A DNA stretch of 64,000 nt, taken from contig OX597821.1 of assembly GCA_951406725.2 (NCBI GenBank), positions 78,802,001 through 78,866,000 of the forward strand, read 5' to 3'. Source of the DNA: Octopus vulgaris (lineage: Eukaryota). The notes under the pieces were generated by a model that was given only the letters and a program-made list of their open reading frames with translations, searched no databases and had not been told where the DNA came from. The position numbers and the translations under genes are program-made. Below, piece by piece: positions 4,607 through 57,979 of this stretch (the first letter of the stretch is position 1; each line of letters begins with the position of its first letter).

Positions 4607-4936
4607 TAATGAAAATGTCAAATCAATCCCATTTGATTCTCAGTCGACTGCAAGTATTCACAATTATTTTTATCGCGATTTTGAGAACTGGTGCATCAAA
4701 CGATGACGGGCAACTTTTTAGGAAAACAACGGAGTCAAAATGCTTGAGGCTTCATACTACACGAACCGAATATACGACATCCGTCACAGAATGTGCATTA
4801 CGGTGTATGATGAATGAGAAGTGTGGTTACTTCAGTTATTGTAATGGGCCATGCAAAATGTATGAATTGTTCTACAACGAAGATATTTACGATATTACCT
4901 GCGACTGTTTATCTTATGTAAGGTTCTCGGGAAACA
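4607..4936 (+). CDS. Gene A exon 1: signal peptide + PAN/Apple-like 8-Cys module
   Basis: Acceptor tttttcag|, ATG at 4609, hydrophobic N-terminus, C-x16-C-x3-C-x5-C-x5-C-x3-C-x15-C-x-C, phase-1 donor A|gtgagt. Paralogous to 42771-43094. Confidence 0.88.
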
Positions 4937-7220: not shown

Positions 7221-7842
7221 TATACCATAAACAGAATAACACTAAACGAACAACTGCTTTTCATGCAGATGGGGTCTATAGGACTTGTTTTCCTTTTTCC
7301 ATTTTTACTAACGACTTCTATCCTAATAATGTGTATCATAACTCTTTCAATAAAATATTTCATCGATTTAATTTAATGCGTCATAAGGCCATGCTTTCCC
7401 AAGTCGGTCGATCTGCTAAAAACATCAGAAAAATCACCTTCAAATTATATCGTGTCATCTTGAAAAGGACGGTACACATCGGATTGTGCTAGATAGAAAA
7501 TATATGAGAGATAGACGAGTTAATCATGGCCCGAACAACTTTTCCTATAAGACTTCTCAATCAGGGTTGAATTGGTGCTAAGTAGCAACAATACTAACAA
7601 CGTTCTAAAATTTTCTTTAAATATGAAATTCTGGAATATGTGAAATAGGAACTGAAAATCAAAAAATCGAGATGAATCTGGAGAAAACTAATTGCAAATA
7701 TCATAATTTCTAAATCCTTGCAGTAATTTTCACTGCCTCGTATGACATGTTAATATATTGGTTTTAAAATCTTGGTAAAATTTACTTTAAAATCTCGTCT
7801 CTTCCTTTACAGTGAAAATGTACTTATTTATTACTCATGCAG

Positions 7843-7934
7843 GTACAAGCTGGCAGAAGGTATTTGAGATAAACAAAAGCTCATTTAAAAGGAGTCCTAT
7901 TTATAAATACTGGGAAAATTTGCCAATTGAAATG
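7843..7934 (+). CDS. Gene A exon 2 (STSWQKVFEINKSSFKRSPIYKYWENLPIEM)
   Basis: catgcag| and |gtaata; 92 nt, phase 1 to 0; 26/31 aa identical to 48120-48211. Confidence 0.9.
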
Positions 7935-8509
7935 GTAATACATTTAAAAAATTTCCAAATGGTTGTCATTTAATGAACAGTCTTCATATGGTTGGTCCGT
8001 TATATTGGAAGATATTTCCATCTTTTCATGTCAATATCGTAATAGCGTATGTAATATATTGTCTCAAAATTGCTGATGTTGTTGTTGTTTAAACCTTGTG
8101 GTCTAGTAAGTTCCAGTTTTGACTCGTGTCTTGTTTTGAAATTAGTCTTTCTATACCGTTTGCTTCGGCACGCATACACGGAGTCAAGGCACAAATAATC
8201 ACTCACATAAGCGCATGCGTCCACAAACACCCTTCTTTGATTATTTCTATTTGAGAGAAAGCTCAAAGATAGCTAATGGCAAAGGCTTACTAAATAAAAC
8301 GTTCGACTAACAAGGTAACCCCTATGTGATCATTTTATTAACAGGGAATAGCAGTCAAATCCGCCACAAATCATAATGCATCTATCTACAGGGTACCGTT
8401 CTCTGAGACGCAATATTTTGAGAAAACGAGAAGACTGGAAGCTCTTTCATTATGTCATTTCTCACGAAGGATGATTAGGATTGAATGAAAACTACGATAG
8501 CTGAGAGTC

Positions 8510-39875: not shown

Positions 39876-40033
39876 GAGTGGCTGTGTGGTAAGTAGCTTG
39901 TTTACCAATCACAAGGTTCCGGGTTCAGGCCCACTGCGTGGCACCTTGGGCAAGTGTCTTCTACTATAGCCTCGGGCCGATCAAAGCCTTGTGAGTGGAT
40001 TTGGTAGACGGAAACTGAAAGAAGCCCGTCGTA

Positions 40034-40073
<40 letters not shown>

Positions 40074-40280
40074 TGTGTGTGTTTGTGTGTCTGTGTTTGT
40101 CCCCCTAGCATTGCTTGACAACCGATGCTGGTGTGTTTATGTCCCCGTCACTTAGCGGTTCGGCAAAAGAGACCGATAGAATAAGTACTGGGCTTACAAA
40201 AGAATAAGTCCCGGGGTCGAGTTGCTCGATTAAAGGCGGTGCTCCAGCATGGCCGCAGTCAAATGACTGAAACGATAAAG
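39876..40280 (+). mobile_element. tRNA-derived SINE with internal (TA)n(TG)n
   Basis: A box tggctgtgtggtaag, B-box-like ggttcaggcc; several copies in the window. Confidence 0.9.
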
Positions 40281-40491
40281 ACTAAAGGGAAAAGAGATAT
40301 CCCCCCACAAGGCTTCATTATAGTAAGGTGCGTGTTTTTGGAAAATCTCTAAATTAGAAGAGAGCATCGATATTGTTTTACCTATATTATCTATCAACGA
40401 TTTCTTAATTGAGGGAGGTTGATTAATATTAGCATTAATATATCTAAGGTTTTCCTTAATTTTGTGGAATGTTTGGGTTTTACCTGTTATT

Positions 40492-40536
<45 letters not shown>

Positions 40537-40565
40537 TGTGGTTATCCCCGACTCAACCCGGGACC

Positions 40566-40675
<110 letters not shown>

Positions 40676-40676
40676 C

Positions 40677-40750
<74 letters not shown>

Positions 40751-40761
40751 GTATATATATA

Positions 40762-42127
<1,366 letters not shown>

Positions 42128-42596
42128 TTTATGAATTTGTTCACCACTTGTTTATTATTGTTTATCATTGTTCTTATTTTATGTCTGGGAATCATTCATC
42201 ATGTACCTCTGACCTCCGTCCCAGGCATCTCCCCCTGTTCCATGTAATCCATTTTGTTTTACTATGGTGTGCATCCTCATCTATCATACGTTTGTGTCTC
42301 TATCTGTGCATGCGTGAGAGTGTGCGCGCGTGTTTATGTATTTTGTATGTCATTGGTGTGTGTGTGTATGTATGTATGGGTTTGCTTACTATAGTGCTTG
42401 TATCAGTGCCCTTTGTATAGTTTTCCCCTTTCATCTTAAGTATGTGTACGTGTGCCTTTTTGTTTGTGTATATGGTTTTATGTATTATACTATTTGTATC
42501 TACTTCATTTTCTCCTATTCTGTATTTAGTCGTCATGTTGTGTAATGTGGTTGTGGTGATGATGGTGGGTGTTATTCCTTCATTCGTGATTATAAC

Positions 42597-42702
<106 letters not shown>

Positions 42703-42770
42703 GGGGTGACTCTATGTGTATGTCTCTTTTTATAAATCTATCTAGCAATACATTTATATATTTTTTTCAG

Positions 42771-43094
42771 GGATGGTAACGTCTGTTGAAAACCATTTCA
42801 TTCTGAAATTATTTCCAGCTTTGATAATTGTACTTACCTTGTCTCCGGTTACTGGTGAATATAAAGAAAATAATTTCAAAAGACTTTCTAAATCAAAATG
42901 CTTAACTGGCCCATTTGAAATATCTAAGGAGACATCATCTCGTACCCAATGTGCATTGCTGTGTACATCAAGCGATCGTTGTGGATATTTTAGCTATTGC
43001 AATGGCTCATGTCGCATGTATCGCCCTTTTTACCACAAAGATCTTAGTGATGAAAGCTGCGACTGTTCATCGTATATTTTGCTCGACGGAAACA
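42771..43094 (+). CDS. Gene B exon 1: signal peptide + PAN/Apple-like 8-Cys module
   Basis: ttttcag|, ATG at 42773, hydrophobic leader ending VTG-EY, same 8-Cys spacing as gene A, phase-1 donor A|gtatgt. Confidence 0.9.
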
Positions 43095-43537
43095 GTATGT
43101 AAATCATATTTGTCTTGTATTCCTTTGTAATTTCATTAGCATAATGTACTGTGGTGGAATATATATATATATAACTTACATATGTGTGTTTGTAAGTGTA
43201 AGTATGTACGTGAAAATATGTCTAATATATAAATTACAATGAAAAATGTATGTTAATATTCTTAAGATATTACAACTGCAAAAGTATAGAACAAGGTTTA
43301 CATAGCAGAATTTATCTAATTCGTCACCTCTAAAGGAAACTAAATAGTACTTCAAAGAAAATTCTACTCTACTTAAAATATTGCAGCTGAGAATAGCATT
43401 TAAAAAATGTACATTTAAGTGTAGGTATATGTATTTAGGTATATTTATGTATACTTATGTATATGTATGTTTATGTAAAAGTATGTATATATGTGTGTGT
43501 ATTTATATTTATAACTTAACCTTATGTACTTTCTAAA

Positions 43538-43661
43538 ATCTCTGACGAAGCCTAGAGAAACATCCAAGTACTTCACTTTCATCTACTAATTACTTCAGTC
43601 CACTGGAGAGATAAAGGTAGAATGAGGTATTTTTGCCTCTTGGCTGAAACAGCTGTAAGAT
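43538..43661 (+). ncRNA. Type-I hammerhead ribozyme with long stem II insertion
   Basis: atct CTGACGA agcctagag...ctcttggct GAAA cagctg TA agat; predicted cut after 43657. Confidence 0.82.
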
Positions 43662-43692
43662 ATTATCACAATTTCTATTCATGTATCTTATA

Positions 43693-43748
<56 letters not shown>

Positions 43749-44099
43749 ACATATGTGTGTTTGTAAGTGTAAGTACGTACGTGAAAATATGTCTAATATA
43801 TAAATTACAATGAAAAATGTATGTTAATATTCTTAAGATATTACAACTGGAAAAGTATAGAACAAGGTTTACATAGCAGAATTTATCTAATTCGTCACCT
43901 CTAAAGGAAGCTAAAGAGTACTTCAAATGAAAATTCTACTCTACTTAAAATATTGCAGCTGAGAATAGCATTTAAAAAATTTACATTTAAGTGTAGGTAT
44001 ATGTATTTAGTTATATTTATGTATATGTATGCTTATATAAAGGTATGTATATGTGTGTGTGTATTTATATTTATAACTTAACCTTATGTACTTTCTAAA

Positions 44100-44223
44100 A
44101 TCTCTGACGAAGCCTAGAGAAACACCAAAGTACCTCAATTTCATCTACTAATTAATTCAGTCCACTGGAGGGATAAAGGTAGAATGAGGTATTTTTGCCT
44201 CTTGGCTGAAACAGCTGTAAGAT
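44100..44223 (+). ncRNA. Second tandem hammerhead ribozyme
   Basis: Identical core and stems; predicted cut after 44219. Confidence 0.82.
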
Positions 44224-44439
44224 ATTATCCCAAATTCTATTGGTATATGTTATATATTTTAATAATTATTGATATTTTTATGTTTTATATGTTATATATG
44301 TAAAGCATAATATGTTATACATGTATATATATTGTTATAATTTTCCTTTTAGTAAATAAATAAATAAATTGACGTAATATAATGTCTAAAATGAATGAAT
44401 ACGACCTATTGATCCCTCCATTTTCTTATTGCTCTCTTG

Positions 44440-44515
<76 letters not shown>

Positions 44516-44532
44516 GTCTGCATATATGTGTG

Positions 44533-44575
<43 letters not shown>

Positions 44576-44859
44576 ATAATAATATAGGGTGAAATTAATT
44601 AATTTGGAATAATCATTAATTTCACCAAGTAGATTTCGGCATGTAAAAGCCCCATTCAAGGAAGGTTTAAGTAATACTAAGTAATTAAGGGTTTAGCAAC
44701 GATTTGCCTCACCACACACCGAATTTAGAAATAGCAGTCAAAGAGTTATGGCAATTCTTTCTACTTAAAAGGGAGATCCCAGTAAAACCACAGCACTTAA
44801 AAGGCAAACAACGCAGGCAAAAGAGAAAGAAATGACGACAATCATTCTATATTAAGTCA

Positions 44860-44950
44860 CCTACGAACGTACGTTTCGAAATTAAGTCATAGGAAAGCAT
44901 AAAAATTAAATAATTACGTCTTACCCGACTATTTTTCTCCTCAGCGTAGG
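44860..44950 (-). ncRNA. Type-I hammerhead ribozyme
   Basis: rc: cctacg CTGAGGA gaaa...tttc GAAA cgtacg TT cgtagg (6-bp stem I, palindromic stem III). Confidence 0.87.
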
Positions 44951-45182
44951 ACTCTTCAATTATAAATAATTGCGTCTCAATTATTAATAATTGTGTATTA
45001 AATTTGGAGGCACTAGAAGACATCACCTCAACTCATGGTATCAGAGCGAGCGTAAGCCATTACCAGTACCACCAAATTCAAAGGGTGAATCAAAGTATGT
45101 CACCATCCTCCTCCCACCAGCGTGCTGCCAGAATAAGATGTTGCGGTTATCTACTGGGATGAGTGTGTGTGTGTGTGTGTGT

Positions 45183-45335
45183 GAGGAGGCGCGTGGTTTA
45201 GTGGTTAGTGTGTCAGCATCATGATCGTAAGATTGTGGTTTCGATTCCTGGACAGGGCGACTTATTGTGTTCTTGAGCAAAACACTTCCTTTCATGTTGG
45301 TCCAGTCCACTCAGCTGGCACAAATGAGTAACGCT

Positions 45336-45398
<63 letters not shown>

Positions 45399-45687
45399 AA
45401 TAGATAAATATATATATATATATATCATAAATAGATAAATAAATACGCCCCATTAAAGCCTAGCCAGGCTCATGGACCAGGTTTCCCGTTTTCTATAGCG
45501 TATGTGTTCCCCAGCTGGACAGGACGCCAGTCCATCGCAGCGTTACTCATTTGTGCCAGCTGAGTGGACTGGACCAACGTGAAAGGAAGTGTTTTGCTCA
45601 AGAACACAATGCGTCGCCCTGTCCAGGAATCGAAACCACAATCTTACGATCATGATGCTGACACACTAACCACTAAGCCACGCGCCT

Positions 45688-45692
<5 letters not shown>
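45183..45692. mobile_element. Inverted pair of near-identical tRNA-derived SINE copies around (TA)n
   Basis: 45183-45337 (+) is the reverse complement of 45537-45692. Confidence 0.88.
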
Positions 45693-45743
<51 letters not shown>

Positions 45744-46527
45744 ACTGTATCTTCGTTTCAGTCATCGGAAAAATCGACGAACAGGGGTGCAGCTCTGCAA
45801 AACAAAGATGCATCAAGTGTCAGTACGACGCCAGCCGACGACACTGGTCGGTATGCTAATGCCTACGCGCGGTACCAAGTGTTTTCTAGCGGCGGAAAGC
45901 TTGATCTACAACTGGTTAGTCCCACAAATAACGTTTCCAGTTACATTTGGATATCCCGGGTATGTCATTATTCAGTTTTATTTCAAGATTTCTTGCCAAT
46001 AGAGAAGAACCATTTTCTAACCTAGATGAAAGATATATGTAGGTATGTATGTATGTATATATGCATTTATGTATGTATGTATGTATGTATGTATGTATGT
46101 ATGTATGTATGTATGTATGTATGTATGTATACTATCTGCAGATAATGGAATACCGATTAGATATACAACCATATAGTGTCAGCAACAAACAAGTTCAAAA
46201 CACGATACAATCATCTGAAAATTACTTTTCTTAATCTAAACCGAAAAATGATACCTTACTATCTTCGCATCTATGAACGCTAATGTTAAATGTACCCAAT
46301 TTGGTATTAAATAAAAGAATTGTCCCATATTGCTAAGTACCTAGGAAACAAAAGTCTCTACCAGCTCTGTAGCGATGAATCGTATAATATATTATTCATT
46401 TGATCACGAATACAGAACTCCCTTCCTACAAGTATAAAATCTTCAAAAGTGTAAGAATTAAAACATATATTTTTTTGTTTTTTACAAAGGTTAAACAATG
46501 ACAATATTTCATACACTTCACCTAACA

Positions 46528-47950
46528 CTTCCTCTTCTCTGATGCCATGTCCTGAACGTGCATGGAAGCCGCGGGCGCGAGTCCTGGTGCAGCCGACCGC
46601 GGGTGCAGATCTCGGTGGTAGTAGCAAATATTCGAACGAGACCTTCGAAGACCGAAGTGGAGAAGGGTTCCGTGCCAACGGCGGTCGAGCACGGTTCAGT
46701 CGGTCCTAAGAAGCGGGCGAAAGCTTCCACGAAAGGCGCCGGATCCGTCGTCGCGAACGTAGCAGTCGAAAGAAAACTAAGCAGCCGGCCTCGCATCGAA
46801 AGGGGATCGGGTTAATATTCCCGAACCCAAACTCGGAGAGTGCCTGTCCGTCGGCGGGAACGCAGCGTGCTCCTAGCAGCGCGTCCGTCGTCGAAGCCGG
46901 CGGCCGGGCGAAGCAGCGGCAACGCAAGCGAGCCCGGAGACGTTACCGGGAGCCCCAGGAAAAGTTCTCTTTTCTTCGTAAAGGACCGTGTCCATGGAAT
47001 CGGCTGGTCCGGAGATACGGATATGGTACCTGTAGAGCGCCGCGTCTCGGGTAGCGTCCGATGCGCTCTCGGCGGCCCTGGAAAATCCGGGTCCGTAACG
47101 AATCGCAGCTCTCGAGTCGGTCCGTACCCACCATCCGCAGCAGGTCTCCAAGGTGTACAGCCTCTCGTCGATAGCGCCAATGTAGGTGAAGGAAGTCGGC
47201 AAAATGGATCCGTACCTTCGGAAGAAGGATTGGCTCCAAGGACCGGGTCGGTCGGGCCGTGTGTGTCGCAGCGCTCCCGCACAGCCGCGTCGCCTTTCAC
47301 TCGGCATCACGCTGCCGGGCGCCGGAACACGTCTTCACATAAACGATTGTGTCCTTCCATAATTATATTTTTTGCTTTCTGAAAGAGTTCTACTTCATGA
47401 TATTTAATGCCGCTGTTTTTTAACCTGTTCATCATCCTTCTGCTCCCCTGCTTCTTTTCCCTTCAATCTTCTCGGTCATCCCTAAATTCTTCAGGCCCTC
47501 TTTCCGCATCACATGAGCTAGAAATCTGTTACATGACCTATATCTAAATTTCCTAATTTCCACAGCCAGGGCCATCACACCCTTAGGCACTTTGTATGTC
47601 CATGCTATCCTCACTATTTTCCTTCAGTACCACATTTCACAGCTCTCCAAGCACATTCTCATTTCTACTGTTATAGGTCCTGCTTCACTTCCATATATTA
47701 ACACAGGCTAGACACAGTTCAATGTACGCATCCTGGACCTGCTGTTCAGAGTACAGTTTCTCAAGATGTTATACAATTTTGAGAATGCATATTTTACCAG
47801 CACTGTTCGTCTTTCGATCTCATTCATACATCTTGTATCTTCTGTTATCGAAGTCCCAAAGTGATTTAACGATGAGCCGCCATATACTTTGTCTTCTTGC
47901 AATTTATCAACTGGCCCTTCCTCTCACTTCCCGACTACAACAACCTGAGA
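46528..47950 (-). mobile_element. RTE-like LINE 3' remnant, interrupted by the rDNA insert
   Basis: ITEDTRCMNEIERR..AF, MRIAWT, FLAHVMRKEGL..KIEGKRSRG. The terminal W..TI..V/GHGI segment is split across 47333+ and 46528-46559. Confidence 0.8.
46560..47328 (+). pseudogene. 28S rRNA gene fragment (central LSU region, about D6-D8)
   Basis: Conserved cores gtgcagatctcggtggtagtagcaaatattc, gaagtggagaagggttcc, cgggttaatattcccgaacc, ccgcagcaggtctccaaggtg, ggaagtcggcaaaatggatccgta; GC-rich island. Confidence 0.95.
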
Positions 47951-48119
47951 TCTCCGAAGTTACCTATCTAATTCTGCTAATAAGACTGTGTGAACTGTAT
48001 ATTTTATTTATGTGATATTTCTGTCTCCAGGCCAAATGTCACCAGCTCTCTTAAATAACTATAGCGAATTATGTATACCACCACAGCTAAAACATTCAAT
48101 TTATTTACAATTTATGCAG

Positions 48120-48211
48120 GCAAAAACTGGCAGAAAGTATTTGAGATAAACAAAATGTCTTTTGAAAGAAGTCCTATTTATAAATACTGGGAGAATTTGC
48201 CAATTGAAAAG
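48120..48211 (+). CDS. Gene B exon 2 (SKNWQKVFEINKMSFERSPIYKYWENLPIEK)
   Basis: tatgcag| and |gtaata; 92 nt; phase 1 to 0. Confidence 0.9.
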
Positions 48212-57332: not shown

Positions 57333-57484
57333 GTGAAACTCGTCTTGAGAAATAATAATGCTGACATTCACTCATTAATTTTCGATGGAAAAGGAACAAA
57401 TTACACATCGTGGTTCCAGGAGAGTAAACTCATTTTAAAGCCCTGGTTTGGAGATTTCTCAGGAATATACCAGTTCAATTATAA
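57333..57484 (+). CDS. Gene B exon 3 (VKLVLRNNNADIHSLIFDGKGTNYTSWFQESKLILKPWFGDFSGIYQFNY)
   Basis: tttgcag| and AA|gtatat; 152 nt, phase 0 to 2; joins exons 2 and 4 in one open frame. Confidence 0.82.
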
Positions 57485-57979
57485 GTATATATGAACCCCT
57501 TGTTCTTTATTCACATTTATAGTTTCTCAATGCTAATAATTACGATTTCTCACATGGGCAAACATTTACATATTTCGAAAATAGAGCACAGTAAACTATG
57601 ATACATCCATCACAATAATTAACGAGTATTATTTTATCGACCCCGGAAAAATAAATAACAAAAAAGATTGTGGTGGGATTCACACTCAAAATATTAATGA
57701 ACAAAAATAACTACAGAATGGCGTATTTTTTGCAACCTTGTTGTCGATTCTGCTATTAGTCATTTTAATTGACGATGATAATGGCAATGATGATTATAAG
57801 TATTCTAATAATAATGAGTGGTAATTTTTCCCATCAGTTGCTCCTTACCATATTTACTGATATGCTTTGTCCAACAGAGACAGTACATTCGCTCGACAGC
57901 AATCGAATGTTCACTAGGTCAATCAAACGGATATCAAATTTATGGTCTACGTAGCTAGCCATTTTGAAATGTGAACATC

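Follow-up and report, generated by a model that had tools for sequence, protein, structure and literature searches.

An intron of gene B of Octopus vulgaris carries two consecutive copies of a 562-bp unit, each with an intact hammerhead core. The tandem would quite likely consist of a 3′-end fragment of a Penelope-like retrotransposon (PLE) of the Hydra clade and part of a neighbouring repeat, duplicated once, with (TA)n slippage or unequal crossover as the likely route and with weak cleavage, if any. The locus itself is probably an ordinary transposon remnant with a small duplication. Judged from the sequences compared, the unusual trait is the very long helix II, which belongs to the whole family and not to the tandem locus; the sequence-only reading, which had noted an unusual insertion in stem II, is to be corrected in this respect.

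The duplicated unit and its host intron

The window, i.e., the whole stretch of DNA analysed, comprises 64 kb. The features relevant to the tandem are as follows.

42773 to 43094, plus strand: first coding exon of gene B, with a hydrophobic N-terminus, a weak PAN-like domain, and a phase-1 donor at 43095
43095 to 48119, plus strand: intron of gene B with the tandem, GT...AG, 5,025 nt; splicing predicted from homology and the GT-AG sites
43159 to 43173, no strand: leftmost part of the duplicated unit, a (TA)n run
43224 to 43412, plus strand: MITE-like terminal inverted repeat fragment, copy 1, about 190 bp, 80-83% identical to L034 and L035 at both of their ends
43408 to 43699, plus strand: PLE pLTR/3′-UTR fragment, copy 1, 5′-truncated, stopping about 40 nt past the predicted cut site
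43538 to 43661, plus strand: hammerhead 1, with stem I at 43538-41/43658-61, core at 43542-48, helix II at 43549-43645 (97 nt), GAAA at 43646-49, palindrome at 43649-56, and the predicted cut after 43657
43689 to 43744, no strand: (TA)n run at the inter-unit junction
43795 to 43984, plus strand: MITE-like terminal repeat fragment, copy 2
43980 to 44433, plus strand: PLE pLTR/3′-UTR fragment, copy 2, with the same 5′ junction as copy 1, running about 210 nt beyond the predicted cut
44100 to 44223, plus strand: hammerhead 2, with core at 44104-10, helix II at 44111-44207 (97 nt), GAAA at 44208-11, palindrome at 44211-18, and the predicted cut after 44219
44432 to 44573, no strand: (TC)n/(TA)n run at which the PLE similarity stops, as it does in several other copies
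48120 to 48211, plus strand: second coding exon of gene B
57333 to 57494: third coding exon of gene B

The two tandem units with intact cores and helices are found where the sequence-only reading had placed them. In the window sequence, the CTGACGA core starts at 43542 and 44104 and GAAACAGCTGTA at 43646 and 44208; position H17 is an A at 43657 (hammerhead 1) and at 44219 (hammerhead 2), and the cuts foreseen after these two residues, 562 nt apart, are thus confirmed as to position. Both hammerheads have a stem I of 4 bp (ATCT/AGAT), the helix II base AGCC/GGCT, and the stem III palindrome ACAGCTGT. The CUGANGA, GAAA, and UH core elements are enclosed by helices I, II, and III, as the definition of a type I hammerhead demands. 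The earlier assignment to PLE-type hammerheads with palindromic stem III holds in both copies. They had also been called minimal, which does not hold in full, stem III being made of 2 bp and a palindromic tetraloop. Likewise, an insertion of about 80 nt had been noticed in stem II; a long helix II is indeed present, its span being 97 nt, or about 89 nt beyond the 4-bp base.

When positions 43159-43699 are aligned with 43730-44260, 507 of 530 aligned bases are identical, and the two units differ at 23 sites and by two indels of 1 nt and 10 nt. Due to these indels, the repeat period is 571/572 bp at the left end of the unit and 562 bp at the ribozymes. A relaxed hammerhead descriptor gave two further matches elsewhere in the 64-kb window. 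The Rfam scan of positions 40000-48000 at E ≤ 5 returned 60 matches, none of them to a hammerhead family; both hammerheads probably escaped it on account of their long helix II.

By its sequence, the unit is a chimera of a PLE end, (TA)n, and the terminal repeat of an unrelated MITE-like element. Thirty family loci were fetched, two of them being those of the window; in the 28 others, the part of the unit on the ribozyme side is all that is shared, and unit positions 153-321 have no match in any of them. The middle part belongs to a different repeat with 168 candidates, of which the 38 scored matches outside the window are 78-87% identical and often occur as inverted pairs about 1 kb apart; the label "MITE-like" refers to these apparent inverted ends. 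This family, which is unannotated, measures about 1.1 kb and has terminal inverted repeats of about 190 bp and TA-rich flanks (L034, L035, L037, L038, L041). A 33-mer spanning the MITE-PLE junction, searched with up to two mismatches, occurs twice in the genome, both times at this locus.

The three coding exons of gene B would, by predicted splicing, join in frame to an intact ORF of 191 amino acids. Its match to PAN_1/PAN_4 is sub-threshold (E 0.02-0.03), and the sole protein relative found for the first coding exon is named from Octopus sinensis. The tandem lies in sense orientation about 450 nt downstream of the 43095 donor. The intron had been called intron 1; it is the first one after the first coding exon, and an acceptor-like site immediately 5′ of the ATG means that it is not necessarily intron 1 of the transcript. 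From two sequencing runs guessed to be RNA came a single contig of a gene B exon (42770-42959) at depth 3, along with two pieces belonging to other repeat copies, and nothing bearing on the cut sites or on a back-junction; contigs are unable to reveal RNA ends. Upstream in the window (4777-4935 and 7839-7937) there is a gene B paralog whose exons are laid out in the same way, and a 28S rDNA fragment occupies 46550-47330 of the tandem-bearing intron on the sense strand.

The parent element and its copies in the genome

The parent element was traced by walking upstream through segments shared among copies, which led to an ORF resembling an endonuclease, with a CxCX5C linker, and to an RT. Of 19 endonuclease loci, seven have a sense hammerhead 1.4-3.2 kb downstream of the endonuclease, and three (L122, L124, L128) have a 5′-truncated RT bordered by an inverted piece that bears a hammerhead; L124 shows both arrangements. 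The order RT, endonuclease, UTR, hammerhead, with RT and endonuclease in a single ORF, is seen in L124, L136, L139, and L141; all RT-endonuclease ORFs seen are broken by stops or frameshifts. Among 20 loci scanned, the RWK motif is present in L202, L203, and L205, and the DKT motif in L189, L190, L202, L203, L205, and others. The CxCX5C linker, together with CxxC(-E) and CxH near the endonuclease end, is found in L096, L129, L202, and L206, while the Pfam search with the L096 endonuclease piece gave no GIY-YIG match. RWK, DKT, CxCX5C, CxxC, and CxH are the motifs by which the Hydra clade is defined in PMC8557442. Furthermore, a ribozyme lies upstream of the ORF start in L189 and L205, in the direct orientation expected of a pLTR hammerhead; in L189 it belongs to a pLTR of the window type (77-79% identity) that immediately precedes the ORF start.

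On these motifs, the window hammerheads are assigned as the predicted pLTR ribozymes of a 5′-truncated Hydra-clade PLE. The hammerheads that share a locus with an endonuclease form a sister subfamily, 72-83% identical to the window; among the fetched loci, no ribozyme copy of at least 93% identity is joined directly to the ORF, and in 19 more diverged endonuclease loci no hammerhead of subfamily A or B occurs within about 5.8 kb downstream. As one candidate partner, a Penelope-type RT upstream of the L071 copy was considered and rejected, since it is adjacent in this one locus and missing in the other 18 junction-fetched loci. This broken RT (L071:6780-8330, oriented) is of another clade, has a CxxPxCxxC-like knuckle, and is a chance neighbour. 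In L097, a long array of a G+A-rich minisatellite of about 40 bp interrupts the family copy inside the endonuclease region.

With the Hydra-clade PLEs described by Craig et al. 2021 (PMC8557442), the element has in common the C-terminal endonuclease, RWK/DKT, the CxCX5C linker, CxxC and CxH, and also (TA)n flanks, a 3′ hammerhead, and inverted 5′-truncated copies. It differs in its microsatellite-rich 3′ UTR of about 2.5-3 kb, which brings the whole element above the clade norm, typically given there as less than 3 kb in total. With the PLE pLTR hammerheads of Cervera and de la Pena 2014 (PMC4209133), it shares type I topology, a short helix I, a palindromic stem III, a G10.1-C11.1-type base, an extra position after the core, and the occurrence mostly as single dispersed motifs, with inverted pairs 100-700 bp apart.

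The genome searched is a chromosome-scale assembly of 2.8 Gb in 227 contigs. The 161-nt ribozyme query gave 788 candidates, and the 40 of these that were scored are 93-100% identical. The tandem hammerhead cores exceed chance, the 22-nt ribozyme 3′ core being present in 242 exact copies and the reversed control in none. A 14-nt hammerhead 3′ core has 14,584 exact copies (control, 18); with its ACAGCTGT palindrome it is common to compact and long-helix families, so that stem III pairing between unrelated copies would be possible in principle. Another abundant repeat family carries a compact hammerhead with a ACTCGAGT palindrome (L172, L051, L090).

Same-strand pairs are rare. In none of 53 non-window loci (28 family copies and 25 loci of the sister subfamily) does a second hammerhead lie on the same strand within about 1.5 kb; pairs in inverted orientation do occur, at L004/L030 and L157. 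One other same-strand pair, L186 (G000:C1:51644500-51650500), was encountered among the first 100 listed of the 242 exact 22-nt matches. There, a family hammerhead is part of a local 1,619-bp tandem, 98% identical, that includes host flank; this independent tandem argues that accidental hammerhead pairs recur. Neither window core has a disabling change. As 19 of 30 subfamily-A copies have intact cores, two intact out of two would be expected about 40% of the time, which gives no sign of selection.

Origin of the tandem and its predicted cleavage

In the proposed sequence of events, a MITE-like terminal repeat would already have been present in the intron. Next, a PLE cDNA whose truncation point was about 135 nt upstream of the ribozyme core would have become linked to it through a short TAC microhomology. 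Duplication of the segment reaching from the upstream (TA)n to just past the ribozyme would have followed soon, or would have come about by crossover of two diverged alleles. The age of the duplication may be read from positions 43495-43699, where the copies differ at 13 sites and have no private change in common relative to the 28 family copies, the single minority allele shared by both being a family polymorphism. Hence, either the copies split near the time of insertion, or two diverged alleles were joined by unequal crossover.

The same region bears on the alternative that the tandem was formed as the PLE integrated, or afterwards by template switching or gene conversion involving another copy of the family, instead of by plain slippage. 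Besides the lack of a shared private mutation despite 13 differing sites, which would place the split near insertion, three neighbouring sites at 43680-43683 differ in a way that recalls two different haplotypes of the family; plain duplication does not explain this pattern, which leaves room for a template switch or conversion. PLEs are described as forming partial tandems (PMC8557442), which favours integration. However, the duplicated unit takes in about 250 bp of non-PLE DNA and has (TA)n microhomology at its borders, and L186 demonstrates that tandems including flank also arise. DNA run X2 moreover hints at a haplotype with one unit and the same PLE junction, which would speak against this origin. 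This origin is consequently regarded as unlikely, and duplication by slippage or unequal crossover is preferred.

In the life cycle of the element, the ribozyme would have the task of processing tandem PLE transcripts, and would probably do so as a dimer via the ACAGCUGU palindrome, as hypothesized in the literature; the window hammerheads would work like a PLE pLTR hammerhead, possibly in dimeric form. In the intron, the tandem would most likely be a passenger that is transcribed with gene B and cleaved slowly in comparison with splicing, with no selected function. The double-hammerhead fold costs +17 kcal/mol in an 811-nt context and the monomers +10 to +11 kcal/mol, values that concern secondary structure only, ignore core tertiary contacts, and are uncalibrated on a known active dimer. 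PLE hammerheads are reported to be of low activity even as dimers (PMC4209133). Among Xenopus retrozyme dimers, one of nine tested was cleaved and eight were not (bioRxiv 10.64898/2026.07.22.740005), and a PLE hammerhead of Anolis is described as cleaving in vitro, yet RNA-seq ends at the cut site are reported as absent (PMC11167929). On the other side, most invertebrate retrozyme hammerheads, also with a 2-bp stem III, are said in PMC7229834 to cleave efficiently. The folding energies and the published low or absent dimer activity argue against efficient cleavage, and weak cleavage without a selected function would be the best estimate.

Could the accidental pair nevertheless be catalytically competent? 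The gene B pre-mRNA would then form a double hammerhead and shed a 562-nt RNA, which a host ligase may circularise. Both cores are intact and in sense orientation to gene B, the 8-bp stem III is self-complementary, and the nested dimer topology is possible. Such a pair would fit the proposal that retrozymes are born when PLE termini are amplified locally in tandem (bioRxiv 10.64898/2026.07.22.740005), and retrozyme RNAs are described as circularised in other invertebrates (PMC7229834). Against this stand the stem I of just 4 bp, the energy of the double-hammerhead fold, the low published activity, and the fact that the unit has not spread, all of which make competence decidedly unlikely. Bolder still, and to be considered improbable, is the idea of a newborn retrozyme, in which a chance duplication of the terminal repeat of a Hydra-clade PLE would have produced, within the host intron, a working double hammerhead with helix II arms of 97 nt that sheds a circularisable 562-nt RNA with a MITE terminus, the long-helix-II hammerheads, some thousands in number and overlooked by Rfam and customary descriptors, being an active structural subclass. 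The locus offers a natural test case for the proposal that local duplication of PLE termini in tandem gives rise to retrozymes. It equally allows testing whether an intronic double hammerhead affects splicing; the apparent single-unit allele of DNA run X2 would serve as a built-in control.

This allele is also an argument for regarding the tandem as an assembly artefact in which two alleles were set side by side. In run X2 the contigs follow a single path across the MITE part, with the same depth (30) as in the exon, no contig crosses the tandem junction, and about 1-2% divergence separates individuals even within the exon. On the other hand, run X1 has two paths through the MITE part versus one through the intron start, the assembly is of chromosome scale, the copies differ at 23 sites and two indels, and contigs cannot prove absence. 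An artefact is held to be very improbable. The insertion is independently supported, since X2 contigs with the depth of the exon run across the MITE-PLE junction; the tandem lacks such support and may be polymorphic.

The sequence-only reading had described a retrozyme-like unit. This stands as far as the two-unit dimer is concerned, a dimer being defined as two or more units in succession whose type I cores are complete (bioRxiv 10.64898/2026.07.22.740005), and falls as far as a mobile unit is implied, the unit being a single-locus chimera with a junction found only here. Membership in the non-LTR retrozymes is accordingly limited, on the sequences at hand, to the two-unit arrangement and does not extend to a family. 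In common with metazoan non-LTR retrozymes (PMC7229834; bioRxiv 10.64898/2026.07.22.740005) are two head-to-tail non-coding units, type I cores, low G+C, and a PLE-derived ribozyme, and about 43% of retrozyme copies are reported to be intronic (bioRxiv 10.64898/2026.07.22.740005). In contrast to them, the window unit contains a MITE fragment, has neither family nor multimers, is known from DNA alone, and measures 562 nt against 170-400 nt for characterised retrozyme circles (PMC7229834; bioRxiv 10.64898/2026.07.22.740005). That it represents a member of a dispersed retrozyme family has a practically negligible probability: the two consecutive complete type I cores, the low G+C, and a length within the reported 51-972 bp (bioRxiv 10.64898/2026.07.22.740005) would agree with it, but the junction is unique (the search would miss copies with over 2 of the 33 junction bases changed), the middle of the unit is absent from the 28 other ribozyme loci fetched, and direct tandems number 0 in the 53 others.

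The long helix II

Helix II folds as a single long hairpin in both window copies, with z values of -3.4 and -3.6 and none of 200 shuffles as stable. Among the fetched loci, 53 distinct cores have a CTGANGA upstream, and in 45 of these helix II is 97 nt long; related families have helices of 54, 70, 90, 99, 105, and about 114 nt. Seven of nine such related regions fold with z below -2, two do not. Subfamilies A and B differ in 27 of 150 columns and in 0 of the 19 columns of core and stem III; four fixed A/B changes fall in two inner helices, and all of them keep pairing. Within subfamilies A and B, no covariation above shuffles was found in helix II, and RNAalifold on 53 copies gives only a 5-bp consensus helix. 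In distant families, the base of helix II is still paired, as judged by eye, and the sequence is different.

For an estimate of abundance, 40 core sites were picked evenly from the first 100 listed of the 14,584 exact 14-nt matches, all on contig C1. Helix II measures 21-29 nt in ten of them and 53-100 nt in six; 24 were unscored, many being decayed. This suggests roughly two thousand long-helix II forms in the genome. A sizeable set of PLE hammerheads is thus missed by Rfam here, and descriptors with a short loop 2 would miss it too.

In the 26 Hydra-clade rows of File S2 of PMC8557442, helix II is about 12-26 nt long, versus 97 nt here, and the largest helix II in any row of that file is about 52 nt. 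Hydra-1_Obim of Octopus bimaculoides, from the same source, has a compact ribozyme whose sequence is unlike that of the window. What is termed a "large" helix II in PMC4209133 has 6-8 bp, as opposed to the multi-segment 97-nt hairpin of the window. A long insertion within an active hammerhead has a precedent in Clec2 (PMC6765202). With the amniote intronic and the discontinuous Clec2 hammerheads described there, the window has in common the location within a host transcript and the long insertion, tolerated there in active form; those are conserved across species, whereas the window tandem is a recent transposon remnant. The literature search, which reached the preprint without its supplements, returned no paper on such long-helix PLE hammerheads or on octopus retrozymes. 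As far as the sequence comparison goes, the novelty would reside in a long helix II variant of the known PLE hammerhead, of which a prior description is possible.

More hammerheads whose helix II measures 54-105 nt and whose inner sequence is unrelated were encountered at L182:2854-2907 (minus strand), L183:998-1075, L204:2067-2136, L171:2922-3011 (minus strand), and L136:2496-2600 (minus strand), as well as in L218, L238, and L241. In L183, a 12-nt palindromic stem III is located about 490 nt past a Hydra-type endonuclease.
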